A stretch of 64,000 nt of DNA from Escherichia coli. GTDB lineage: Bacteria > Pseudomonadota > Gammaproteobacteria > Enterobacterales > Enterobacteriaceae. The stretch is from the NCBI RefSeq assembly GCF_022846255.1, contig NZ_AP025682.1. One strand, written 5' to 3'. A program made the translations under genes and the position numbers. The notes under the pieces were generated by a model that saw only the letters and a program-made list of their open reading frames with translations, ran no database searches and was not told where the DNA came from. This document shows positions 38,724-62,490 of this stretch, in pieces. The stretch's first letter is position 1, and each line of letters begins with the position of its first letter.

Positions 38724-41312
38724 TCACATACACACAGTGCGCACCAGAAAAATACCAGTTGCTTCTTTCTCCTCTGGAAGTCGATAATTTGCACGGCAAG
38801 AACTGTTACGCCCCCATTGAACCTTCAACTGTCCGGTTTCATCCAGTCCGCTCAAATACACCTCTCCATTATCCCCCACAACCCCTGCCCCACCAGGCAT
38901 TTGACCTTTCTTTCCTTCCTCTGTCACCACAGCTCCAAAAGGCAGGCGAGAGCCGTCACTACGTGACAGAGTTATCAGTGCTCTTCCCCCTACTCGAGTG
39001 ATAAACTTCGCCCGAACCACGGCTCCCTTTGTAGGAACAACACGAGTATCTGTCTGTGATACTTCCACATTTTCCGGGAAAGTTGTCGGATCCAGTGTAA
39101 TAAGATTTTCTTGGTATGGAGATACATGATTCACAAGAGTGTAACCTCTGGTATCGGTCCTAACGCCAGGCAAACTCCCAACTGAAGCGCCATTAACTCC
39201 AGGTGCTACAACCAGAGCAACCGTATCCTCTCCTTTCTGACCAAGAGTGATACCTTCATTGTGGAGCACCATACCTCCTGATATACCAGCACTCATCTGG
39301 CGAATATGACTGCTGTAACTGTACATCCCCGCCAACTCACCATAGGTACCAAACCACCTCAAATTCAGTCGGCTACTGTCTACATTATTTTCACTTCCGG
39401 GAGCTATCCGCTCACTCACATCCCAATACAACCTACGGTCAAATGCGCGACCATTCAAACCGGTTTCGTACCAAGTATTCTGCCCCGTAGTTCTTTGCGT
39501 TTGAGTTGTAACATTAATATCGTTATCTCTACCCCCAATCCACTGCCCCAGAGGAATATTCATCCACAGATTGATACTATCCTCTATATGCCCTCTCTGA
39601 TAATATGCATTTGTACTATAGTTACGTGACCAATTAACGTACCACGAAATATTCTTCCATGACGTTCCATATGACATGCCGAAAGAATCCTGCTTCTGTC
39701 GGTTATGACGGAACTCATCACGGCTACCGTAAAGGCTCATATACCCCAGAGATCCCAGAGACTGATTAAGGCGTAATGTTGTCCGGCGACTCCTGTCCCC
39801 ACTATAACTATATGCACGAAAGTTATCATTTCTAAATGTACTCAGCACATCGGACAATGTGTGGAAGCCTGAGGACGTATACTGATATCTCGCCGCTGTC
39901 AAATCTGTATTCGTAAGTTCAAATGACTTGTTGTAACGCAGACGCCATGTCTCTCCCGTCTCCGTATCCCGTCCCTTCTGCTGACCGCGGGAATGAATGC
40001 CGTCAACCGACACCGCCCCCAGTCTGCCCATTGACCATCCCAGCCCCAGAGCCGCTGACTGATAATGCGATGACATCTGTGCTCCCCCGAAGGCCGTCAG
40101 CCCCCATGGCAGACCATACATGACACTCATCTGCCCCAGCGGTGAATGCTCAACAGCATCATCTGAAGAACGGTACTCCCCCCCGGCAATGCTGTACTTC
40201 ATATATCCCTCACGAAGCGCAATGGCCGGTGTGGTGTAAGGCACCGTAAACACCTGAGCAGTACCATCAGATTCCTGTACCGTTACCTGAAGGTCTCCAC
40301 CTGACCCCGTCAGCGGCAGGTCCGTCAGGGCAAATGCGCCCGGGGCCACCGTCCGGCTGTCAATCAGATAACCATTCTGGCGCACCTCAATCCTGGCCTG
40401 GGTCCGGGCAATACCTCTGACCACCGGCGCAAATTCACGCTGGTTATAAGGCACCATGCTCTCATCTGACCCCAGCATCACCCCACGGAACGGCACACTG
40501 TCAAAAATGTCTGAAGGCGTGTAATCCTCACCCAGCGTCAGACGACTTCTGAGACTGTTAATCCCCCGCTCCGCACGAATATAGGCACTCTCCCACTGCC
40601 CCGGCTGACCGGATGACCTGTTCCAGGTTGTCAGGTTACGCACCCGCCAGGGACCAAGATTAATGCCCGGCTCAAGAGTGACCCAGTAATTGTCAGTAAC
40701 CGATTTCCCGTATCCACGATATTCTGAACGACTGGTATTTGCCTGCCAGTTCAGCAGAAAAGCAGGAATACCATCATCCCATAAGGCCTCCGGCGCTATC
40801 CCCCTCAGTGGCGGGCGCAGGGCCACCTGAGGAATACTCAGCAGCAACTGCTGTGACGCAAACTGGTATGTTTCCGTGGCCTGTGGAATAACGGATAACT
40901 CAGCACAGGCGTCAGCTTCCTTTCCGTCATCCCCGTGAAACAACTCCGGATATTCCTCCGTCATGACACCATAGCGGGCCAGCATTTCCCGGGTCAGACA
41001 GGTTTTCAGATAAGTCTTACCCTCCGCATCTTTCTCCGTACGGAACGCCATGTCCCGCGAATCCACCCGCGAACCGTTCAGGATAATATCAACCGGATAG
41101 ATACCGGGCAGTTGGGCACCTTCTTCAAACAACGTCAGGTCCACCCCCTTTCCGCCACCTTTAAGCATGGAAGCATCAAAGGAGTATGTGCGGGCCTCAG
41201 TATTCCCGGTGTAAAGAAGGGTACAGGCCGCCATCACAGAGAGAGCAACCGCTGTAATTTTTGTTTTTACGCAATATAAAGATAAACCTGAAGATGACTT
41301 ATTCCTGTGCAT
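38724..41312 (-). CDS. afaC: fimbrial outer-membrane usher protein
   Basis: 862-aa ORF with signal peptide and usher N-terminal signature (FDASMLKGGGKGVDLTLFEEGAQLPGIYPVDIILNG); symbol by synteny with afaD-like gene. Confidence 0.8.
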   Translation of the reverse strand: MHRNKSSSGLSLYCVKTKITAVALSVMAACTLLYTGNTEARTYSFDASMLKGGGKGVDLTLFEEGAQLPGIYPVDIILNGSRVDSRDMAFRTEKDAEGKTYLKTCLTREMLARYGVMTEEYPELFHGDDGKEADACAELSVIPQATETYQFASQQLLLSIPQVALRPPLRGIAPEALWDDGIPAFLLNWQANTSRSEYRGYGKSVTDNYWVTLEPGINLGPWRVRNLTTWNRSSGQPGQWESAYIRAERGINSLRSRLTLGEDYTPSDIFDSVPFRGVMLGSDESMVPYNQREFAPVVRGIARTQARIEVRQNGYLIDSRTVAPGAFALTDLPLTGSGGDLQVTVQESDGTAQVFTVPYTTPAIALREGYMKYSIAGGEYRSSDDAVEHSPLGQMSVMYGLPWGLTAFGGAQMSSHYQSAALGLGWSMGRLGAVSVDGIHSRGQQKGRDTETGETWRLRYNKSFELTNTDLTAARYQYTSSGFHTLSDVLSTFRNDNFRAYSYSGDRSRRTTLRLNQSLGSLGYMSLYGSRDEFRHNRQKQDSFGMSYGTSWKNISWYVNWSRNYSTNAYYQRGHIEDSINLWMNIPLGQWIGGRDNDINVTTQTQRTTGQNTWYETGLNGRAFDRRLYWDVSERIAPGSENNVDSSRLNLRWFGTYGELAGMYSYSSHIRQMSAGISGGMVLHNEGITLGQKGEDTVALVVAPGVNGASVGSLPGVRTDTRGYTLVNHVSPYQENLITLDPTTFPENVEVSQTDTRVVPTKGAVVRAKFITRVGGRALITLSRSDGSRLPFGAVVTEEGKKGQMPGGAGVVGDNGEVYLSGLDETGQLKVQWGRNSSCRANYRLPEEKEATGIFLVRTVCM

Positions 41313-41479
41313 TATTCACACCTGAGCCACGGTTTCTTTTTATTTACATATGCCGGAGGATATACACACGTATTTGTGCGTTTGCACGCCTATTCACACA
41401 CACTTATTTCACACACGCTCAGTATTCAACCGGGTTAATCAAATAAGCCCGCCGCTGACGTTAATATTTATTCCGGCTT

Positions 41480-42247
41480 TCAGCTTTTTAATTCCGATTC
41501 AAACGGCTTACTCTTTCCGCCGTAATCCGTAATCACTGTCCAGCTGACTTTTCCTGATGCACCAGAAGGAATTTCATATTCGTAAGAGGAGTACGGAGAA
41601 ATATAACGATGCTCCTTAACCTCTTTCCCACCAACGCTCAGCTCTGAAATATTAATATAAAATGGTGTCGGGTTATTCCCTTTCAGTTTATTACCTGATT
41701 TTGTCCACTCCACTTTTCCGCCTGCATCCTCCGGACGCCCTTTAACCGCAGGCGGACGAACAAACAGCTTCACACAACTGCTGACGGAAAGATTTACCTG
41801 CAGGGTTGCCTTGTCAGCTTTCTTTTTATCAGCACCTTTCTCTTCTGCCCATCGGTCATCATGCTTTGGCGGAATGCCTTTCACACAAAGCCACTGCAGA
41901 CTCTCACGGTCCTCAGGAAAAACACCCCCGGTACGGACAATTCGCAAACGGCTCGACTGAAGTGCATCCAGACGGAAAAGCGGCGGCGTCACCACAAAGG
42001 GGGCCGGGTCCTTCTGATTCTCTGCCAGCACCTCTGACTGAACCAGCATCGGATAATCCAGGTCATTCATTACCGTCAGTGAGGCCCCCGATGAATCCAG
42101 GTTGTAAAACACCCTTGTGGCCCCCAGATGCAGGGAAAAAACCTTTGACGTAGTCTTCGTGCTTTCCTGGTTTCCGGCTGCCATTACGCCGGAAGCCGGC
42201 AACCCCGCCAGTATGCCAACGAGCGCTGCAAGATGTCTGATTTTCAT
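41480..42247 (-). CDS. afaB: periplasmic pilus chaperone (PapD-like)
   Basis: 255-aa ORF with signal peptide and conserved chaperone core (PFVVTPPLFRLDALQSSRLRIV); symbol by synteny. Confidence 0.8.
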   Translation of the reverse strand: MKIRHLAALVGILAGLPASGVMAAGNQESTKTTSKVFSLHLGATRVFYNLDSSGASLTVMNDLDYPMLVQSEVLAENQKDPAPFVVTPPLFRLDALQSSRLRIVRTGGVFPEDRESLQWLCVKGIPPKHDDRWAEEKGADKKKADKATLQVNLSVSSCVKLFVRPPAVKGRPEDAGGKVEWTKSGNKLKGNNPTPFYINISELSVGGKEVKEHRYISPYSSYEYEIPSGASGKVSWTVITDYGGKSKPFESELKS

Positions 42248-53068: not shown

Positions 53069-53887
53069 TTAAGCAGCCATCTGATGATATTTTTCCCTGA
53101 AGGCTGCCGGGGAGATATTCCCCAGACGAGAGTGACGACGCTGACGATTGTAGAAAATCTCAATGTATTCCCGTATTACTGAGATGGCTTCATCCCGGTT
53201 ATTAAAACGATAGTGGCTCAGGCTCTCATTTTTCAGCGTTCCCCAGAAGCTTTCCATCGGAGCGTTGTCGTAACAGTTACCTTTACGCGACATTGATGTT
53301 TTCAGACCAAACTGCTCCTGTATGACCCGGTAATCGTATGCGCAGTACTGTGAACCTCGATCAGAGTGGTGGATTAGCCCGGCAGGTGGGCGCTGGCTCC
53401 TGAGCGCCATAAACAGGGCTTTACCTGTCAGCTCTTTTGTCATGCGCTCTCCCATGGCGTAGCCGACAATTTCGCACGTATAAACATCTTTGATGCCAGC
53501 GAGGTACAACCATCCCTCCTGTGTGGCAACATACGTCAGGTCCGCCACCCAGACCTAATTTGGTGCTGTAGGAGCGAACGTCTGGTTCAGCAGATTTGGC
53601 GCAACTGGCAGATTGTGGTTCGAGTTCGTAGTCGCTCTGAACTTGCGTTTCTGCTTACAGCGTAGCCTTAGCTCCTTACGAAGACGTGCCAGTCGGTCTC
53701 GACCAACGATGATGCCATTCTCTGCCAGCTCTGTCTGGAGCCGCCGGGTTCCATATGTTTCGCGAGTGCGGATATGTGCCACCTTAATCTCCAGTTTTAG
53801 CCGCTCATCACTTTGTTTTCTGTCTGAGGGTTCATGCTGTACCCAGTTGTAATAACCGCTCCTGGATACACCAAATACCTGACACAT
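53069..53887 (-). pseudogene. IS3-family (IS600-like) transposase OrfB with premature TAG
   Basis: Track ORFs 53555..53887 and 53069..53548 are one DDE transposase (..APTAPN * VWVADLTYVATQEGWLYLAG..HHSDRGSQY..) split by an amber codon where Gln (CAG) is expected. Confidence 0.7.
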
Positions 53888-53964
53888 CGCTTCAATGGGA
53901 AATTGTTGTCGCCATTGTTCGATTAACGCGTATTTTTCAGCGACTCCTGTGCAAAATACGCTGT

Positions 53965-55185
53965 TGTAGATTCAATCTGTCAATGCAACACCCCTTTCAA
54001 TTATCTCTTTCGGTGTTTTGAACTTCAGTGTCTTTCTCGGTCTGTTGTTTAGCTGAGCAGCAACCAGATCTAGTTCATGTTGAGTATATTGGGCAAGACA
54101 TGTCTTTTTAGGAAAGTACTGCCGAATTAGCCCATTTGTGTTCTCATTTGTTCCCCGCTGCCAAGGACTCTGAGGATCGCAGAAGTAAACTTTAACGCCG
54201 GTGCTGACAGTAAATTCTAGATGTCTGGCCAGTTCCATTCCTCTGTCCCATGTCAGTGATTTTCTGAGTTCTGACGGTAAACTCAGGAATTTGTCGGTAA
54301 GAGCCTGATTTACTGAGACAGAATCTTTGCCCCTGAGTCTAAGGATGATCGTATAACGTGATTTTCGGTCTACAAGTGTGGCTATATGAGAGTTTTTTGT
54401 ACCTGAGACTAAATCGCCCTCCCAATGCCCCAGAGAGCGTCTGTTATCGATATTTCGGGAACGTTCGTGAATTGGTGTTCCGTTCACTATGTTAATCGTA
54501 CCTCTTTCGCCTTTGCGGGTATGACGCCTGCCATGGCGAAGGCTATGCGACCGTCGCAGATGCTGTATATTCAGGTGGTGTAGCGCTTCACGGCTACGAA
54601 AGTACAGCGTTTTATAAATTGTCTCAGGTGATATTCGCAGCGTTTTTTGACGTGGTTTTGTTCGCCTTAACCATCCTGATATTTGCTCTGGAGACCATTT
54701 CATCTCCAGCTTTTCCAGAACAAGCTTTCGCAATGGTAAATTTTGATCCAGTAAGCACGGTTTTGGCCTTTTCGCCATTCTGTTGGCTCGGTTATTAGCA
54801 TCAACAGCTTTGTAATAGCGTCTGCCCCGATTACGCTGAACTTCACGTGAGATCGTCGAAGGACTGCGATTCAGCGCAGTAGCTATCGCACGAATGCTCA
54901 TTTTGGCTGACAAACCAGCTCGTATCTCCTCGCGCTCAGACAGTGTCAGGTGAGCTACAGCCCGCTTACGCTCATGGGGTTTTATGCCGCCAGTATCCCT
55001 TAACATAGTGAAGATCGTTCCGGGTTTTGAACCCAGGATATTCGCTATTTCACTGAAGCCTGTTCCGTTCTTCCATAGTTCAAAAACAGAGGCTTTTTCC
55101 TCTGCTGTAAATGTTCGTCTCATTCAAAAAACCTCCGCAACCCCATGTTTTCACATAACTGTTGCGTTGATCAATTGAATCTACA
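53965..55185 (-). mobile_element. IS30 (1221 bp) inserted into the IS600-like orfA
   Basis: Ends TGTAGATTCAATCTGTCAATGCAACA ... GTTGCGTTGATCAATTGAATCTACA; flanked by a 2-bp direct repeat GT; contains one 383-aa transposase. Confidence 0.85.
53972..55123 (-). CDS. IS30 transposase
   Basis: 383-aa ORF MRRTFTAEEKASVFELWKNGTGFSEIANILGSKPGTIFTMLRDTGG... with HTH and DDE regions; apparently intact. Confidence 0.85.
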   Translation of the reverse strand: MRRTFTAEEKASVFELWKNGTGFSEIANILGSKPGTIFTMLRDTGGIKPHERKRAVAHLTLSEREEIRAGLSAKMSIRAIATALNRSPSTISREVQRNRGRRYYKAVDANNRANRMAKRPKPCLLDQNLPLRKLVLEKLEMKWSPEQISGWLRRTKPRQKTLRISPETIYKTLYFRSREALHHLNIQHLRRSHSLRHGRRHTRKGERGTINIVNGTPIHERSRNIDNRRSLGHWEGDLVSGTKNSHIATLVDRKSRYTIILRLRGKDSVSVNQALTDKFLSLPSELRKSLTWDRGMELARHLEFTVSTGVKVYFCDPQSPWQRGTNENTNGLIRQYFPKKTCLAQYTQHELDLVAAQLNNRPRKTLKFKTPKEIIERGVALTD

Positions 55186-55448
55186 GTTGCTTTTTTTAAT
55201 ATATCTCGCTCAAGGCGAGCTTCATTTAACGCCTTACGCAGTTGCAGAATTTCAGATTCCAGTTCAGCCAGCGTGCGGGAACCAGGAGTACCGAGCCCTT
55301 TTCTGGCGGCGGTAACCCATTGTCCTAAAGTGCCTTCAGGAAGAGATAATCGGGAAGCGCCTTCACTGCTCGAAAGTTGATTTTCAAGAACCATTCTGAC
55401 AGCTTCGGCTTTGAACTCTTTAGAGTAACGTTGGGTTTTTCTGCTCAT
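55186..55448 (-). pseudogene. IS3-family (IS600-like) transposase OrfA, C-terminus displaced by the IS30 insertion
   Basis: MSRKTQRYSKEFKAEAVRMVLENQ...LERDILKKAT then the IS30 end; the remaining codons (AYFAQESLKNTR*) resume on the far side of IS30 at ~53925-53962. Confidence 0.7.
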
Positions 55449-55985
55449 TATTAGCTCCTTCTGATGCCATTCTATTTCAGGAAGGAGTGTCCGTTAAACT
55501 CAGGCTACCTCACAACAGGGGACAGACAACGCACGGGATAAAAGGGACGTTTTCGTCAGAATGTTGTTCTGCCGGCGCTGCATGTTCTCCCCGTATTCTG
55601 GCCAGTGTGATGCCAGTGTAAATTCATGTCAAAAAGTGTCAGCGAGAAAATTTACACCTGAAAAAGTCGGTCGTAAAACTGTTTCATGGCGAAACATCAG
55701 GAAGTATGTCAGAAATGTGATCGCTATTGTGGTTTTACGGAAGAGCATAAGGCAAAAAACGGCGGGAAATTCATTGACATTCACGGAGGATAAACAGCAC
55801 CATTTTATTATCCAGCAAGAAAACCGTAATCCCCCTCTGAATCCGGACAAGGTTCGTACTGGCAACATAACCTGAAATGGCACTAATGGCCAGAGCTTAC
55901 TAATACATAATCCCTACAGGATGTAGCCACCAGTTTTGTTCATCCGGTATTCTGATTTGGTAACATGCTCCAGAAAGGAAGAAAT

Positions 55986-57218
55986 ATGTACTGCAATGAA
56001 TTAAAAGAATTTGCGCAAGAGCAGGAACAAAAACTTATCAGTGCGCTTGCTGATACCAGAGAGCACCCGTCCCCCGATGGTGAAACAAGAAGCCGGGATA
56101 ATTATCAACGGGATTACGCGCGTATTCTGTATTCATCATCATTTCGCAGGTTGCAGGGAAAGATGCAACTTTTTGAAATTGATCCTGAAAAATTCAACAG
56201 AAACAGATTAACGCACAGTCTTGAGGTTGCTCAGATCGCCCGAAGTATCGCGTCAGACCTCAAACTGGTTAACCCGGTGGTGGTTGAACTGGCAGCTCTG
56301 GCGCATGACATCGGAAATCCTCCTTTCGGTCATTCCGGTGAAAAACTGCTTAATGAACTGTCTGAAGAAATCGGCGGCTATGAAGGTAATGCACAGGCGC
56401 TACGTATCCTGAGAAAACTGGAGAAGAAATTTTCATACTGCAACGGATTAAATCTGACTCACCGTAGTTTACTTTCGGTTGTTAAGTATCCCGCCCCTCG
56501 CACTGCAACTACTGCCGGCAAGTTCATTTATGATGATGACTTTGATTTTTATACTAACCTGCTTGCTGAAAATCAGCTCGATCTGAATCCCGGAGAGAAA
56601 ACGATTGATGCACAGATAATGGATCTCGCGGATGAGATTGCCTACGCTGCGCATGACCTGGAAGATGCCCTTAGCAGGAACATGGTCACGATTGAAGATA
56701 TTGAATATGAGTTTCAGATTTCTGACGAATTCCGGGGAGCGAGGGAACAGTTCAGGGAAATCGTTACTCAGTCGAGAAACACCGCTTTTCAGGCTAACTT
56801 ACTGAAAACCTCAGAAGAATTTGCCATCATATTCCGCAAGGAGTTAACTTCAAATATTGTCAATCGCCTCGTTGCTGATATTTCTGTAGTAACGAACCTG
56901 AATGGTTTTCAGGAACTGGGATTCGGGAAACTGAATGCGTTATCCGAAGGGCTCAAAAAACTTCTCTTTAAAGTCATCATGCGAAAACGTAATATCCTCA
57001 CCTATGAGTTCAGGGGAAATAAAATAATCAGGGATTTATATGACTTTTACAATGAAGGAGAGAATTATAAATTTCTGCCTCCTGAACTTAAATTCACCTT
57101 ACCCCAACCAGATTCCTGTATATTTGAAATCAGCAAAAAACGAGCAGTGGTTGACTATATTTCAGGTATGATGGATACATTTGCAGTCAAGGAATGGGAA
57201 ACTCACTGTCTGAAGTAA
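55986..57218 (+). CDS. Dgt-family HD-domain dNTP triphosphohydrolase-like protein (dGTPase-like)
   Basis: ORF track 55965..57218; HD motifs RLTHSLEVAQIARSIA and LAHDIGNPPFGHSGE plus EGNAQALRIL; RBS AAAGGAAG before ATG at 55986; AT-rich island gene. Confidence 0.8.
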   Translation: MYCNELKEFAQEQEQKLISALADTREHPSPDGETRSRDNYQRDYARILYSSSFRRLQGKMQLFEIDPEKFNRNRLTHSLEVAQIARSIASDLKLVNPVVVELAALAHDIGNPPFGHSGEKLLNELSEEIGGYEGNAQALRILRKLEKKFSYCNGLNLTHRSLLSVVKYPAPRTATTAGKFIYDDDFDFYTNLLAENQLDLNPGEKTIDAQIMDLADEIAYAAHDLEDALSRNMVTIEDIEYEFQISDEFRGAREQFREIVTQSRNTAFQANLLKTSEEFAIIFRKELTSNIVNRLVADISVVTNLNGFQELGFGKLNALSEGLKKLLFKVIMRKRNILTYEFRGNKIIRDLYDFYNEGENYKFLPPELKFTLPQPDSCIFEISKKRAVVDYISGMMDTFAVKEWETHCLK

Positions 57219-57317
57219 CACTGTCGATTACCAGAGGCGCATATTTTCCCGTTATGGTTATTGCGCCTTTATTCCGTTTCGGTGACAGGTTATTTTAAAT
57301 ATTCTGGAAATGCGTTG

Positions 57318-57887
57318 ATGGGCAAGAACAATTACCCTGAAAATAAATACAGGAAATGGTTTTCCACAGCAATAACATATCTTATTACAGGTGGTTTGTG
57401 CTGGTATATGTTGTGGGCATCCGCTATATCTCATTATACTGTTTTACAAAATACGGTACCTGAATGGACAACATATTTTTGCACCGGTATAATCACCGGA
57501 TCTCTTTCTTTTATTTATGCATTTTATATCCGCACCTTTAACAGAACATTAAAGTATTTATTAAATGCATTCACGGGGGGATTTTGTCTTGGATTTATAC
57601 TGAGTCTGAACTGTTACGATGTCTGTGTTTATCTTTTTCCGGATAAGGTTATTAGCTATGAATCTGAATATGATGTTGTTTTTCCGGGACCATCAAGAGG
57701 AAAGTATGGACATTGTGAAGCGGGACTCTGGTTGAAAGATCAAAACACTTCCAGATGGATACAACTTTGTACAAATAAAGAGTTCCTGCGCAGTCACCAT
57801 AAACAGGGGATGACAGGTGTATGGGTAACAGCTCGTGTTAATAAAATTGGGTCGTATATCGTGAAATATGAATTTATCTATATGTAG
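57318..57887 (+). CDS. hypothetical membrane protein (3 predicted TM helices plus ~90-aa soluble C-terminal domain)
   Basis: ORF track 57261..57887; hydrophobic segments ITYLITGGLCWYMLWASAI, GIITGSLSFIYAFYI, FTGGFCLGFILSLNCY; starts ~100 bp after the dGTPase-like gene on the same strand. Confidence 0.55.
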   Translation: MGKNNYPENKYRKWFSTAITYLITGGLCWYMLWASAISHYTVLQNTVPEWTTYFCTGIITGSLSFIYAFYIRTFNRTLKYLLNAFTGGFCLGFILSLNCYDVCVYLFPDKVISYESEYDVVFPGPSRGKYGHCEAGLWLKDQNTSRWIQLCTNKEFLRSHHKQGMTGVWVTARVNKIGSYIVKYEFIYM

Positions 57888-58303: not shown

Positions 58304-58738
58304 TTATTCATAATCAGGACCAGATGATACTTCCTGAGATATAAGAAAATCATCAAGAGAACCTCCGGCTTTTATAGCCTCTGCTATGGCCTTAGGCCGA
58401 CGTCCTTGTCCATTCCAGTACATTCTTTTACCGTTATCGTCATACTCGTATTTATGCCCTCCTGACACACTTTTTCTGCCTGCCTGTGACTTTTTGCCAA
58501 ATTCACGATAAAAATCTTCCAGAGATATACCATGTTCATCCATGAGTGATTTGATAGCTTTCATATTTTCCTTTCGCTCATTACGTTGCTGAATAGCTAT
58601 GTCAAAGTTTTCCTTAACCTTATTTAAATCTTCATCAGACATTTCTATAACCAGTTTTTTAACAAAGTCAATACTCAGAAGTAATGCCCGGTAAGTAATG
58701 AACTCTTCATTTTCAAAAGGAATTTTCTTCTTACTCAT
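58304..58738 (-). CDS. H-NS-family nucleoid-associated protein paralogue
   Basis: 144-aa ORF; C-terminal DNA-binding region GRKSVSGGHKYEYDDNGKRMYWNGQGRRPKAIAEAIKAGGSLDDFLI matches the H-NS motif (..Y.Y.DENG...TW.GQGR.P......GKSLDDFLI). Confidence 0.75.
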   Translation of the reverse strand: MSKKKIPFENEEFITYRALLLSIDFVKKLVIEMSDEDLNKVKENFDIAIQQRNERKENMKAIKSLMDEHGISLEDFYREFGKKSQAGRKSVSGGHKYEYDDNGKRMYWNGQGRRPKAIAEAIKAGGSLDDFLISQEVSSGPDYE

Positions 58739-59631
58739 TTATTAACACTCAGCTTTTCATTCATTTATGGCAAATCCTATCAGGTGATTCACCATAAAAA
58801 TAATATGTGTATCACATTTTTCGGTACTTAATCGTCACTTCCTTTCCGAAGGAAAGGCCATCGCAGAAAGTAAGAGAACGTTCTTTGTATTTGATACTTA
58901 GCGAAATTGCGCCGGTCACTACTTGTCTGAGTCCATTCACTTTCGTTAATGTTAATGAGAAAAACCCGCAGTATGATGCGTAATTTCATCAAACTGATGA
59001 AATTCGGTAGCAATCATATATCTGGTGTAGCCTGCATATTCGCAGGAACACGAATATCGATTATACTAATGGACTAACAATCTTCAGCCTCTTCAAGAAG
59101 ATGTTATAAATACACACAGATACTGATTCTCATCCCTTTCAGGCCTGGAACACTATTTCTGCTTTTTAGCATCATCTGGTAGCAATACTTTCCAGGTATG
59201 TCGCCCCATTTTTGTTCGTCTCCATTTTTTTAAGAAGTGCTCAAGTGAAAAACTTTTTACCTCTCCGGGAGTTGTCGTATTTGCTGATATTGTTCGTTTG
59301 TTTAAAGAACCTACTGGTCTTGCCATTAATATTACCTGCTGATTGCTTCACGCCCGGACTCCTCGCACTGTGCGCGGGTTATTGTTTCGTTTTCAGCCCC
59401 GGGGTCGCCAAGGCTCTGGATGGGGTACTACTTCCATTGACAGCATGAGGTAACAATACTGATGGTAACGCTGACCATTAACCGTAAACCACAGGGCATT
59501 TTCAGTAAATCACCGGCAACGCCGCTGCAGGATAAAACGAACACTGCACATAACGTGAAGGCCAGGGAACGGATACCACAGTTGAACGATAAACAGAGCC
59601 CTGCTCTGCTGAAAAAACACCGTGGCGGCAT

Positions 59632-59973
59632 ATGACAAAACGCCAGCGTAAAAACCGTGAGCGTATTAATCGTCTTGTGGAACACTGGCCTGAGTTATTC
59701 AACCGGGAAAAACCCCAACCGCTTAAAGTTGAGATATCTGACGACCTGATACAGGATATCGCCATCAGAGAACTGGCGTTTAGCGCAGGTGCATTACGCG
59801 CGGCAGTAGCGTCTTATGTGCAGTCTCCGCGCTATTACCGTGCGTTAATGGCAGGTGGCGCCCGTTACGACCTGAAGGGGCAACCGTGCGGGGAGGTGAC
59901 ACCACATGAACAGAAAGAGGCAGAGACCCGTTTAATGATGCTGAATGACCGACGAAAAGCCAGAAAGCGTTGA
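59632..59973 (+). CDS. ProQ/FinO-domain RNA-binding protein (small, island-encoded)
   Basis: 113-aa ORF; LRAAVASYVQSPRYYRALMAGGARYDLKGQPCGEVTPHEQKEAETR resembles the ProQ N-terminal domain ([39 protein letters not shown]) as I recall it. Confidence 0.65.
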   Translation: MTKRQRKNRERINRLVEHWPELFNREKPQPLKVEISDDLIQDIAIRELAFSAGALRAAVASYVQSPRYYRALMAGGARYDLKGQPCGEVTPHEQKEAETRLMMLNDRRKARKR

Positions 59974-59977
59974 TTCA

Positions 59978-60772
59978 CTAAGCTGTAATCAATGTACAGC
60001 GCTGTACCGGACGATGGGTAATGGCGGTCACAACCGGTAACCCCAGAGACAATGTGACTGTTTTTAACGCAACATACTGGCCGGATGTATCACCCCGGGC
60101 GACCTGAAAACACTTTTCCACCCGGCATTGTCCGCCAGCGCTTATCACCTGCCAGGTCTGTTGTAGTAAATCCACCAGTTGTGAACATTCTTCATCAACT
60201 GTCACACTGGCTCGCGGATGGCAAATGCTCGTCTGGCTGAGCAGCAACAGGCATCGCATTGTTGCTCCTCCATGTTGTTCCCGCAACCAGCGTAATACCA
60301 CCGGCGATGATGGACTGGCCGTGTGATTACGCTCAGTAATACGTTCGTGCACCTGTCGATAAAAGGAAGTACAGAATGCATAAATCTGTTGCCCGTTGAT
60401 ATTTCCTTCTGCCGAATGGAGTGTGAAGTGAAATGCCAGCAGATGTGGCCAGTGGTCCACCGCCTGCTGAATAAAACGCCGGATATCTCCCGGCTCTGAA
60501 AGTAAGGCTTCGGTTATTTGCACGGAATACGACTCCTTCAGACTCTGTTGAATTTTGTTAAGCCGGTGCAGACACACGGGAAAATACGCATCAACACCGG
60601 CACGATACGATACAAACACCAGTGACTGGTGATACGAATGGAATGACGAATACGTCAGAAAGGAATACCCCCCGCTGGCTGACAGGAGGGTATCAGCAGG
60701 AAGATGAACGGGAATGTCGCCAGCACCAGGGACAGGGCTGATTTCCACAATACCAGCGCCGGCATTTTGCAC
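59978..60772 (-). CDS. hypothetical protein (island cargo, downstream of AlpA-like gene)
   Basis: 264-aa ORF from the track; no family recognised; true start uncertain. Confidence 0.4.
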   Translation of the reverse strand: MQNAGAGIVEISPVPGAGDIPVHLPADTLLSASGGYSFLTYSSFHSYHQSLVFVSYRAGVDAYFPVCLHRLNKIQQSLKESYSVQITEALLSEPGDIRRFIQQAVDHWPHLLAFHFTLHSAEGNINGQQIYAFCTSFYRQVHERITERNHTASPSSPVVLRWLREQHGGATMRCLLLLSQTSICHPRASVTVDEECSQLVDLLQQTWQVISAGGQCRVEKCFQVARGDTSGQYVALKTVTLSLGLPVVTAITHRPVQRCTLITA

Positions 60773-60802
60773 ATCGCCAGCGTACCGGTATTACAACACG
60801 TT

Positions 60803-61132
60803 TCATGCAGCAGCTCCTCGTGACTCCTCGATTCGCTGCTGCATCCACTGCTCCACTTCGCTTTTGTACCAGCGGCTGCTGCGACCCAGTTTGATGGGTT
60901 TAGGAAAATGGCCTTCACTGATCAGCTTGTAAAACCATTTGTCAGTCATACCGGTGAAGCTGGTGATGTAGTTCATGTCGATCAGGGGATCGTCGGCACG
61001 CAGCAACACGCTGTCGTGGCTTATTGTTGTCAACATGGTCAGAATGTCCTCTGTGAGATTTATGAAGGTTGGGCAAATGCGGGTGAATCTGCTGAACGGA
61101 GTTTTCAGAGCTGGCCTGCTACGGGATACCAA
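60803..61132 (-). CDS. AlpA-family phage/island transcriptional regulator (HTH)
   Basis: Track ORF 109 aa; C-terminal part ITSFTGMTDKWFYKLISEGHFPKPIKLGRSSRWYKSEVEQWM matches the AlpA-type HTH; true start probably an internal Met. Confidence 0.65.
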   Translation of the reverse strand: MVSRSRPALKTPFSRFTRICPTFINLTEDILTMLTTISHDSVLLRADDPLIDMNYITSFTGMTDKWFYKLISEGHFPKPIKLGRSSRWYKSEVEQWMQQRIEESRGAAA

Positions 61133-61809
61133 GGATTACCAGCGAGGCAACGGGCTTCCGGATCGCACACTCCACGGCGATCGCGGGCGAAATCACTGAA
61201 CGCCCATATCAACTCTTTGAGGATGTCTTCGCAGTCCGGTGAACGACTGTCCAGCAGCACATCCCGGGTGATCTGCTTCTGGTACGGTGCCGCTTCATCC
61301 GGTGACGCGAAGCCCAGTACGTTGCTCCAGGCATCCAGAATCAACCGATCCAGTTCAGGGCCATCGAAATGCTCCTGTCTGACGCACAGCACCACGTGGT
61401 ATTCCGGCTTTTCCGGATGACGGGTCAGGAGCCAGCAAAGGTCGCGTCCGGGTTTCGCATTCATCAGCGCACTGACGGTTTCGATAAAATCCATACCAAA
61501 CCAGGTCGTTCTGCTGTTGAAGGTATTGTCATATTCACACGGTAGACGAAGCAGGATCCGCCGTACCCGGGAGCAGGACTGTTCACGCAGCGCACGCTCA
61601 AGAACGCCGATGACTTTGCTCTGATAAGATGGCCAGAAGGGGGCAAGGCTATCGTCGAAATAAGGAATAGCATTCATAAGATATGCTCCGTTATGCGCAG
61701 CCCACAACGCGTCCTGCCCGTGAATGAGCTGACGTGTTATGGCTTGCGGATGAGATTGATGGAATAAGTGAAGAACTGAAGCAGAACGGGAAGATAAGGG
61801 ACAGAACAC
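61105..61809 (-). CDS. hypothetical protein (island cargo)
   Basis: 234-aa ORF from the track, same strand and operon-like spacing with AlpA-like gene; no family recognised. Confidence 0.4.
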   Translation of the reverse strand: MFCPLSSRSASVLHLFHQSHPQAITRQLIHGQDALWAAHNGAYLMNAIPYFDDSLAPFWPSYQSKVIGVLERALREQSCSRVRRILLRLPCEYDNTFNSRTTWFGMDFIETVSALMNAKPGRDLCWLLTRHPEKPEYHVVLCVRQEHFDGPELDRLILDAWSNVLGFASPDEAAPYQKQITRDVLLDSRSPDCEDILKELIWAFSDFARDRRGVCDPEARCLAGNPWYPVAGQL

Positions 61810-61923
61810 CGGATACAGGTTCAGGATGAATGATCTCCGTTGACTTCAGTTCACATCATTAATCAATGCGGTAAGTTTTTACCGACGGAGTGTTTCCAGG
61901 AGCGGAGGCTCAGGCCTTAAGCT

Positions 61924-62490
61924 TCAGAAGTGAGGCTTACGAGGACGCCCTGCAGCAGGACGTTCAGGAACTTCATTGCAGCCGTAGGCACACAGCCCGT
62001 CTTTTTGCTCTTCTTTCGCCAGATAATGCAGGGCACCGCGAATATTATCGATGCTTTCAGGATCGTTGTGGCGCACAGGAATGTTGATGTTGTATGTATA
62101 ATGCGGCTGATATGTACAGCGGTGTGCCGAACCGCTGTTATGCGTAATAGACCGCCAGCATTCCGTAATCCGCTCCGCAAAGGGATATATTTTTTTAACC
62201 CTCTGACGATCGATCCAGAAAACCGCATGCGCATGAAAACCATGATCAACCGTCCATTCAATCACCCAGAAGAAGCCAACGATATTTTCAAATTGTTCCA
62301 CCTGCTCCAGCAGCATACGCAACTGCAATTCAAGCCAGCGATGATCAGGTTGTAAGAAATCAGGCGTATCTTTCCTGTAGAAGAAATCCATGCGTAAGGC
62401 CCGCAGGCAGGAATAGCGTGCCATCATTTGATTGATGTGATTGTCAAGTAAAGCGGTAAAAAACCAGTTTGGTGTGTAAGATTTAGGCAT
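61924..62490 (-). CDS. hypothetical protein (island cargo)
   Basis: 188-aa ORF from the track; no family recognised. Confidence 0.4.
   Translation of the reverse strand: MPKSYTPNWFFTALLDNHINQMMARYSCLRALRMDFFYRKDTPDFLQPDHRWLELQLRMLLEQVEQFENIVGFFWVIEWTVDHGFHAHAVFWIDRQRVKKIYPFAERITECWRSITHNSGSAHRCTYQPHYTYNINIPVRHNDPESIDNIRGALHYLAKEEQKDGLCAYGCNEVPERPAAGRPRKPHF

Follow-up and report, generated by a model that had tools for sequence, protein, structure and literature searches.

A mobile dGTPase, very probably a single-gene enzyme of the known defence kind, lies beside a seemingly unrelated membrane gene on an Escherichia coli island

On an Escherichia coli island, a gene for a dGTPase is followed on the same strand by a gene for a small membrane protein, and the question that this locus raises is whether the two genes form an anti-phage system of their own or whether the enzyme stands alone and the membrane gene has come to lie beside it by chance. 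The original prediction took the former view and placed here the likeliest undescribed system of the window, by which is meant the whole stretch of 64,000 nucleotides that was analysed. Based on the analysis below, the locus is very probably a single-gene dGTPase of known defence kind beside an unrelated membrane gene. The membrane gene, which is beside the dGTPase gene in E. coli alone, appears to be a chance neighbour, and thus we see no new two-gene defence system here.

The dGTPase gene (55986–57218, plus strand) encodes an HD-domain dGTP triphosphohydrolase of 410 aa. The open reading frame that holds it occupies 55965–57218 on the plus strand, with the start taken at 55986, as in RefSeq, where the gene has 1233 nt; this start is preceded by a ribosome-binding site, AAGGAAG, at about 55973–55979. 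The site lies in the stretch that separates the dGTPase gene from what is left of the 5' part of cdiB (55584–55985, plus strand), an intergenic region in which the promoter is presumably located; a consensus scan of the plus strand of this region found no promoter-like site. The protein matches the Pfam families HD and HD_assoc (E 3e-14 for each), passes the model TIGR01353 dGTP_triPase with 321 bits for a cut-off of 152, and matches the PADLOC dGTPase model PDLC02374 with E 1.8e-110 over profile positions 28–369 of 395. The catalytic residues are all present, namely H77, H107-D108, H116/E119, D213/D216 and the DLADE segment, and they line up with those of the Vibrio cholerae structure 9VWA and of Sp-dGTPase (9P8W). 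The expected HD-domain dGTPase of about 410 aa is therefore confirmed, and a protein identical to it is present in E. coli (P0062).

It can be asked whether this is simply the ordinary housekeeping Dgt. This identification was rejected, as the original prediction had anticipated: the protein reaches 157 bits against NF003429, for which the cut-off is 405, the lengths are about 505 aa for Dgt and 410 aa for the window protein, and the structure of E. coli Dgt (PDB 4X9E) matches with E 2e-21 over the N-terminal residues 39–125 only. The two enzymes share the superfamily and the chemistry, while the window gene lies on an accessory island instead.

The relatives of the window dGTPase with 64–82% identity lie in prophages or adjoin NACHT or SIR2 genes. 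In Proteus the relative is 3' of a prophage integrase; in Edwardsiella it is within a prophage, having recET on one side and the repressor on the other; in Klebsiella it adjoins a NACHT gene and in Pantoea a SIR2 gene; and a copy with 64% identity is carried by Stx2c phages. The membrane gene is near none of these five, and among 50,697 phage records no membrane protein of this kind was found. It is noted that the placement on mobile elements and next to defence genes is true of the relatives, the window copy being on an integrase-bearing island. The other window neighbours that were tested gave no PADLOC match, and thus the island is not a classic defence island. Together with the PADLOC match of the enzyme itself, the relatives agree with the claim that the dGTPase is of the mobile, defence-associated kind; a setting among defence genes is seen for the relatives beside NACHT and SIR2 and not among the window neighbours tested.

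Alternatively, the island dGTPase could be a second housekeeping enzyme of the nucleotide pool, serving dNTP balance or the mutation rate, that is carried on mobile DNA and is not immune in function. Housekeeping enzymes do exist in the Dgt family, the tested window neighbours include no recognised defence genes, and the protein remains below the cut-offs of two NCBIfam models, antiphage_dGTPase NF041026 (286 bits for 400) and the anti-phage dGTPase model NF003701 (254 bits for 383). This is also consistent with the integron study, according to which dGTPase homologues with differing functions are difficult to tell apart (10.1101/2024.07.02.601686). However, if the enzyme had such a role, its patchy occurrence in E. 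coli would be difficult to understand, with the gene matched in 345 of 5426 complete genomes (about 6%), and E. coli already has Dgt, to which the window protein is only distantly related. Considering also that prophages or islands carry the close relatives, beside NACHT or SIR2, and that the PADLOC match is strong, we regard this alternative as quite unlikely.

The single-gene defence dGTPase is thus the preferred reading of the enzyme, and we compare it with the enzymes already described. Defence dGTPases act as single genes in the description given by Tal et al. (10.1101/2021.04.26.441389), and the integron dGTPase 'Ogmios' is likewise a single-gene defence (10.1101/2024.07.02.601686). The window enzyme resembles the enzymes of Tal et al. 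in having HD and HD_assoc, the same catalytic residues and the match to the PADLOC model, and also in being on mobile DNA and stand-alone in every other taxon examined. By contrast, it is shorter than the four dGTPases that they describe as validated (410 aa versus 455–484 aa; 10.1101/2021.04.26.441389) and lies below the NCBI anti-phage cut-off. Their list is restricted to proteins longer than 400 aa whose identity to Sp-dGTPase is 25% or higher and whose coverage is 90% or higher (10.1101/2021.04.26.441389); the 410-aa protein matches Sp-dGTPase 9P8W with E 1e-47, the HMMER alignment running in two stretches, 36–172 and 204–405. As judged from sequence comparison, the 410-aa dGTPase belongs to a clade that is sister to the long, validated enzymes and, since those are longer, the anti-phage activity of this clade is argued from context and homology. 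Note also that the window protein is not the E. coli G177 enzyme tested by Tal et al., an identification that was rejected because the latter has 455 aa and is 55% identical to Sp-dGTPase.

The closest solved relative is a 402-aa dGTPase-like protein of Vibrio cholerae (PDB 9VWA, 9VWC and 9VWG; E 6e-115), for which we found no publication describing the entries. 9VWA aligns end to end with the window dGTPase, over residues 1–407, with all catalytic segments conserved, and it also moves horizontally, as copies with 89–94% identity are present in Vibrio, Shewanella, Pseudoalteromonas, Enterovibrio, Marinobacterium and Psychromonas. The two proteins differ in their host group, and one relative is 81% identical to 9VWA and 54% identical to the window protein. 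The enzyme represents one more clade, of about 410 aa, of mobile dGTPases, which is common in pathogenicity and contact-dependent inhibition (CDI) islands of E. coli and which the defence-annotation profiles already catch.

By analogy with the dGTPases of Tal et al., it is expected that on phage infection the window enzyme probably hydrolyses dGTP into deoxyguanosine and triphosphate. The loss of dGTP would then starve phage DNA replication and in this way protect against the phage, and the enzyme would work without a partner, the membrane protein evolving independently of it.

The second gene of the locus, the membrane gene (57318–57887, plus strand), starts at ATG 57318 and encodes 189 aa with three transmembrane helices. 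In the AlphaFold2 model (pLDDT 87) the helices span residues 8–38, 49–71 and 78–106 and are followed by a beta domain at 110–187, in accordance with the description of a co-oriented protein of about 190 aa with three transmembrane helices and a soluble tail. Two cysteines of the beta domain, C133 and C151, are invariant in the family alignment, and the domain is probably disulfide-bonded. From the alignment, the distribution of Lys and Arg and the model, the protein is predicted to be in the inner membrane with its C-terminal beta domain facing the periplasm. The profile searches that had been proposed for both proteins gave an assignment for the dGTPase (PADLOC, TIGR01353 and Pfam) and no family for the membrane protein, which has no significant match in sequence searches of Pfam, NCBIfam, PADLOC, PHROG or the PDB; likewise, among the 37 plus 20 family members scanned, no Pfam match giving a function and no PADLOC match was found.

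The relatives of the membrane gene, with 43–77% identity across genera, constitute a small uncharacterised family, most of whose genes have housekeeping neighbours and some of which adjoin CDI loci; three remote members are in housekeeping contexts too. Outside E. coli the set comprises 37 loci, 33 from representative genomes and 4 from species looked up individually. When the open reading frames within 4 kb of the membrane-gene relatives were clustered over these 37 loci, no universal neighbour appeared, and the best family, a LysE-type exporter, was present at only 9–12 loci. The membrane protein most likely has an envelope-related role of its own.

If the two genes were to function together, it would be expected that they occur together elsewhere. 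With tblastn, no dGTPase was found within 6 kb of the membrane-gene relatives at any of the 33 representative-genome loci or in any of the 4 further species, and the five relatives of the dGTPase described above have no membrane gene near them. Among the taxa examined, the two genes are neighbours only in the E. coli island. Within E. coli they are co-oriented, 99 nt apart and nearly always on one island segment, the membrane gene being matched in 334 complete genomes. Of the complete genomes, 319 have the dGTPase gene over 80% or more of its length and 203 have the membrane gene to this extent; in at least 116 complete genomes the dGTPase gene is wholly or mostly preserved and no intact membrane gene is present. 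About 130 E. coli genomes have a partial membrane gene, of which the first approximately 290 nt alone are kept in all 12 examples listed; in strain EC4, for instance, the dGTPase gene is intact and a papA fragment cuts the membrane gene at nt 292. As the truncated allele may have originated in a single event, this is evidence of tolerated loss, not of repeated loss.

The spacer between the two genes (57219–57317, plus strand) is consistent with their separate histories. The nucleotide similarity to the dGTPase relatives stops at 57218–57221, that is, at the stop codon, while that to the membrane-gene relatives begins at 57331–57339, about 15 nt within the gene, and the 99-nt spacer matches the relatives of neither gene. 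The GC content also differs, being 42.7% in the dGTPase gene and 36.5% in the membrane gene. On these sequence grounds the spacer is read as the junction of two DNA segments with different origin, and we propose that recombination inside the E. coli island, with its order cdiBAI, dGTPase, membrane gene and hns-like gene, would have put the membrane gene beside the dGTPase gene. The spacer has a hairpin at about 57233–57270, followed by a U-rich stretch, which is possibly a weak terminator; its folding energy of −31.9 kcal/mol (z −1.6) is not significant, and neither a terminator scan nor a consensus promoter scan called anything in the spacer. Because this hairpin is unconvincing as a terminator, co-transcription of the two genes in E. 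coli is possible. However, two island genes that point the same way with little DNA between them do not for that reason make up an operon or a system.

We now return to the two-gene module, in which the membrane protein would be an infection sensor, an anchor or a second effector for the dGTPase. If it existed, it would mean a new membrane control of a nucleotide-depleting immune enzyme. It would account for the orientation of the genes and for their close spacing on an island shared by several hundred E. coli genomes, and a dGTPase that works with a regulatory partner is already known: the Clover system consists of the dGTPase CloA and the nucleotidyltransferase CloB (PMC12265719), so that the earlier understanding of defence dGTPases as single genes only is out of date. 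The likeness to Clover lies in a dGTPase effector with a co-oriented adjacent second gene, and the CloA structures match the window dGTPase with E of about 1e-25. However, the window dGTPase is nearer to the stand-alone dGTPases than to CloA, the window pair is not conserved, and the second Clover protein is a nucleotidyltransferase of the Pol-beta type that bears the [D/E]h[D/E] motif, whereas the window neighbour is a three-helix membrane protein with no such domain or motif. A Clover-type system was rejected because no nucleotidyltransferase domain was found in the neighbour with Pfam or NCBIfam.

A further point for the module comes from AlphaFold DB, where one relative of the membrane protein (34% identity, TM-score 0.86) bears the label of a SMODS-associating 2TM beta-strand-rich effector, and the window protein resembles this CBASS effector type in being small, with N-terminal membrane helices and then a beta-rich domain. 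It has three helices, though, and not two; none of the 57 membrane-family members matches the Pfam family or the PADLOC models of the CBASS S-2TM-beta effector, and in the Pfam-annotated neighbourhoods of the family genes there is no SMODS, CD-NTase or cyclic-nucleotide synthase. Moreover, the conserved domain of the membrane protein is predicted to be periplasmic while the enzyme is cytoplasmic, no effector profile of PADLOC or Pfam matches the family, the homology tracts and GC contents of the two genes are separate, the dGTPase gene persists in many E. coli genomes where no intact membrane gene exists, and outside E. coli co-occurrence is absent in either direction. We therefore consider the module very unlikely, and the proposed partnership is not upheld: the pair was never found together elsewhere, an outcome that the original prediction itself had named, together with a lack of phage resistance, as speaking against an undescribed system.

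A narrower version can be conceived, in which the three-helix protein became a membrane partner for the dGTPase at a later stage and solely within the lineage of the E. coli island. The protein might then tether or restrain the dGTPase until phage envelope damage frees the enzyme. A recent, lineage-specific coupling of this kind would be invisible to cross-taxon tests of co-occurrence; we deem it extremely improbable.

With the single-gene dGTPase and an unrelated membrane gene as the preferred reading, the surroundings of the locus can be considered. The GC content around both genes is 0.36–0.44, compared with 0.50–0.57 over much of the window, and the predicted low-GC island between insertion-sequence debris and an H-NS paralogue is indeed present. 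On the 5' side of the dGTPase gene are IS3 pieces broken by IS30, cdiB remnants and an IS4 fragment (NCBIfam matches to IS30, IS3 and IS4). The decayed cdi locus with its insertion sequences (50666–55448, minus strand) comprises a probable cdiI, a C-terminal fragment of cdiA, pieces of cdiB, one of them with POTRA-like matches, and the IS3 interrupted by IS30. Strain mip270_05 has an intact cdiBAI at the same place, and the E. coli match begins at window position 55510 and includes the 5' end of cdiB.

This neighbourhood raises the possibility that the membrane gene belongs with the CDI locus, as an orphan immunity or accessory protein against envelope-acting toxins, with the dGTPase gene inserted between it and cdiB. 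Immunity proteins against such toxins are typically small membrane or periplasmic proteins. Of the 37 loci outside E. coli, four have a CdiA-like gene within 6 kb (Pantoea agglomerans L036, Pantoea sp. Eser L044, Sodalis L045 and Klebsiella L050), the E. coli island also has a CdiA-like gene near the membrane gene, with the CdiA-like sequence at 51180–51641 similar by eye to the CdiA of L036, and in Hafnia the membrane gene adjoins a type VI secretion vgrG/effector cluster. On the other hand, about 30 of the 37 loci have no CDI gene nearby; the gene is not placed uniformly relative to cdiA, as it may follow cdiA in the same orientation, converge with it or lie upstream of cdiB; L036 and L050 already have a separate cdiI after cdiA; and the 43–77% identity across genera is unlike that of fast-evolving immunity proteins. 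We thus take a CDI function to be unlikely, and as an uncharacterised envelope-protein family that occasionally lies by CDI loci, the family may deserve a look.

Finally, we note that on the other side of the locus an H-NS/StpA-like paralogue (58304–58738, minus strand), convergent with both genes, forms part of the island backbone; its product matches NF007656 StpA with E 3.6e-17, under the cut-off, and RefSeq has an H-NS family protein at the same position.

In the window, the HD-domain dGTPase lies on the plus strand in an ORF called at 55965-57218, with translation starting at the ATG at 55986, 6 bases downstream of an AAGGAAG ribosome-binding site; this gives the 410-aa product annotated by RefSeq in E. 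coli, to which the retrieved E. coli protein P0062 is 100% identical. On the same strand the second gene runs from the ATG at 57318 to 57887 and encodes a membrane protein of 189 aa. The GC content around the two genes is low (0.36-0.44). Upstream of the dGTPase gene are an IS3 element split by IS30, cdiB remnants and an IS4 fragment, and downstream of the membrane gene are a convergent H-NS/StpA-like gene and then a ProQ/FinO-like gene. Thus the layout that had been predicted, with an HD dGTPase of about 410 aa in low-GC DNA between IS debris and an H-NS paralogue, is confirmed by the ORFs, the GC content and the neighbours.

The dGTPase carries the Pfam HD and HD_assoc domains, passes TIGR01353 (dGTP triphosphohydrolase) with 321 bits against a cut-off of 152, and matches the PADLOC defence dGTPase model with an E-value of 1.8e-110 over nearly the full profile length. 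The metal-binding and catalytic residues H77, H107-D108, H116/E119 and DLADE 213-217 are present and align with those of solved relatives. It is not the ordinary housekeeping Dgt, a possibility that would have been fatal to the original prediction: NF003429 gives 157 bits against a cut-off of 405, and the E. coli Dgt structure 4X9E is matched in an N-terminal stretch only, with an E-value of 2e-21. Nor is it among the enzymes that Tal et al. validated, which have 455-484 aa, and it falls below the cut-offs of the NCBI anti-phage dGTPase models. Of the solved structures, the nearest is that of a dGTPase-like protein of 402 aa from Vibrio cholerae (PDB 9VWA, E-value 6e-115), possibly the integron cassette 'Ogmios' (10.1101/2024.07.02.601686). 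Proteins with 89-94% identity to this V. cholerae protein occur in Vibrio, Shewanella, Pseudoalteromonas, Enterovibrio, Marinobacterium and Psychromonas (retrieved proteins P0234-P0267), and this degree of identity across several marine genera suggests recent horizontal spread.

The relatives of the window dGTPase are found as mobile cargo at every site examined, as one would expect if the gene serves defence. The Proteus relative (82% identity) adjoins a prophage integrase, the Edwardsiella relative (81%) lies between recET and the repressor of a prophage, the Klebsiella relative (75%) lies beside a NACHT gene, the Pantoea relative (75%) is immediately 5' of a SIR2 gene, and Stx2c-converting phages carry a relative with 64% identity. 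It is noted that the gene in the Stx2c phage is unannotated (L058:3001-4224, i.e. Stx2c_EH0430, LC727889.1 2242-3465) and lies near one prophage end, with the attachment-site duplication about 1.8 kb away.

The dGTPase is a single gene of an already known type of defence enzyme, belonging to a sub-clade shorter than the first-validated enzymes and already detectable by existing defence-annotation profiles. In the defence dGTPase family, dGTP hydrolysis during infection starves phage DNA synthesis (10.1101/2021.04.26.441389); by analogy with this family mechanism, the window dGTPase would hydrolyse dGTP on infection and phage DNA synthesis would be starved. A two-gene dGTPase system, Clover, is known (PMC12265719), but its partner is a nucleotidyltransferase and the window locus does not fit that definition.

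The original prediction proposed the membrane protein as a possible partner of the dGTPase in an undescribed two-gene module, and this pairing fails in both directions. In a one-genome-per-species scan for the membrane gene, which yielded 33 loci from about a dozen genera, neither the dGTPase nor the H-NS paralogue was found by tblastn within 6 kb of the membrane gene at any locus; the neighbourhoods of the relatives in Pantoea, Enterobacter, Pseudomonas and Hafnia contain no HD protein, and three remote family members sit in housekeeping contexts. In the other direction, the four dGTPase relatives of other genera all lack the membrane gene in their vicinity, and the membrane protein has no match among 50,697 phage records. 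Adjacency of the two genes was therefore not found outside E. coli in the loci examined. The two genes also belong to separate DNA tracts: similarity to the dGTPase relatives stops at 57218-57221, the stop codon, similarity to the membrane-gene relatives starts at 57331-57339, and the 99-nt spacer between the genes matches neither set. The GC content is 42.7% in the dGTPase gene versus 36.5% in the membrane gene. These data argue that the membrane gene is not related to the dGTPase and came to lie beside it within the E. coli island, so that the two-gene module is unsupported and the defence gene here is of a kind already described. The spacer contains a hairpin followed by a U-rich stretch; since the hairpin is statistically unconvincing as a terminator, co-transcription in E. 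coli is possible. A functional coupling specific to the E. coli lineage is very improbable, with nothing pointing to it.

At least 80% of the dGTPase gene is present in 319 complete E. coli genomes and at least 80% of the membrane gene in 203, with only a partial membrane gene in about 130; among the matches listed, the partial gene consists of the first ~290 nt only in 12 of 12. In strain EC4 (L019:6001-6615) the dGTPase is intact and a rearrangement bringing in a papA fragment cuts the membrane gene. It is noted that in a common E. coli allele, that of EC4 and about 130 other complete genomes, the membrane gene stops after nt 292, fused to a papA fragment and a pap regulatory region, with the upstream dGTPase intact, and that in EC4 the resistance genes floR and tet(A) lie a few kb beyond the truncated gene.

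The order of the E. coli island is cdiBAI, dGTPase, membrane gene, hns-like gene and, further on, integrase. In the window the contact-dependent inhibition locus is decayed (50666-52997 and 53069-55448), with cdiB split into a 5' end at about 55510-55583 and other pieces at 51849-52997 by IS3, itself interrupted by IS30; all that is left of cdiA is a piece of its C-terminal end (51180-51641), after which come a probable immunity gene (50666-50986) and the IS4 fragment (50012-50572). Downstream of the gene pair, 58304-62490 is the backbone of a CP4-57-like island with the H-NS paralogue, the ProQ/FinO-like gene (59632-59973) and further ORFs that are YagK/YfjJ-domain and inovirus Gp2-family proteins according to RefSeq in the matching E. 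coli island; three of these ORFs have no NCBIfam or PADLOC match. Farther away are a chaperone-usher fimbrial operon (usher and SafB-like chaperone, 38724-42247) with strongly negative GC skew and a low-GC (0.36) pair of an MFS transporter and a Gfo/Idh/MocA-type oxidoreductase (47028-49435), for both of which PADLOC indicates no defence relation.

Searches of Pfam, NCBIfam, PADLOC, PHROGs and PDB sequences returned no match for the membrane protein. Its family is small, with 61 clusters at 90% identity and 54 at 50% identity among 1.84 billion representatives, chiefly from Enterobacterales and Pseudomonas. In the AlphaFold2 model (pLDDT 87), three long helices are followed by a beta domain (110-187), in agreement with the three TM helices and tail described before. 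In the family alignment the membrane part is variable and the C-terminal domain is well conserved: a PGP motif and two cysteines are invariant, and the tail reads GSYI..Y.F. Because Lys and Arg are concentrated at the N-terminus and in the second loop, the beta domain should be periplasmic by the positive-inside rule, a placement that fits with a disulfide bond. Fold searches revealed no function. A 216-aa relative in AlphaFold DB (A0AAU6U6D7; TM-score 0.86 at 34% identity) bears the label 'SMODS-associating 2TM beta-strand rich effector domain-containing protein'. Neither that Pfam family nor any PADLOC model was hit by a member of the two family alignments scanned, and the label may be an over-annotation or a sign of very distant relationship.

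A toxin-immunity or accessory role of the membrane protein is a minor and rather unlikely possibility. A CdiA-like gene lies within 6 kb of the membrane-gene relative at 4 of 37 loci outside E. coli, namely in Pantoea agglomerans (L036:12-6561), Pantoea sp. Eser (L044:4228-6516), Klebsiella sp. BIGb0407 (L050:103-6258) and Sodalis (L045:6001-12478), as it does in the E. coli island (L001:3040-17379), and in Hafnia the membrane gene adjoins a T6SS vgrG/DUF4123/Tle1-like effector cluster. For one gene, neighbours of this sort probably exceed what chance would give, but the arrangements relative to the toxin loci differ and about 30 of the 37 loci have no such neighbour. Note also that a membrane-family gene lies directly 3' of a GNAT acetyltransferase gene in Pseudomonas sp. 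CYM-20-01 (L008:5456-6582) and on a short metagenome contig (L056:2890-4003), the two genes overlapping by 4 nt in one case and lying 29 nt apart in the other; no other sign of an operon-like arrangement was seen in the family.
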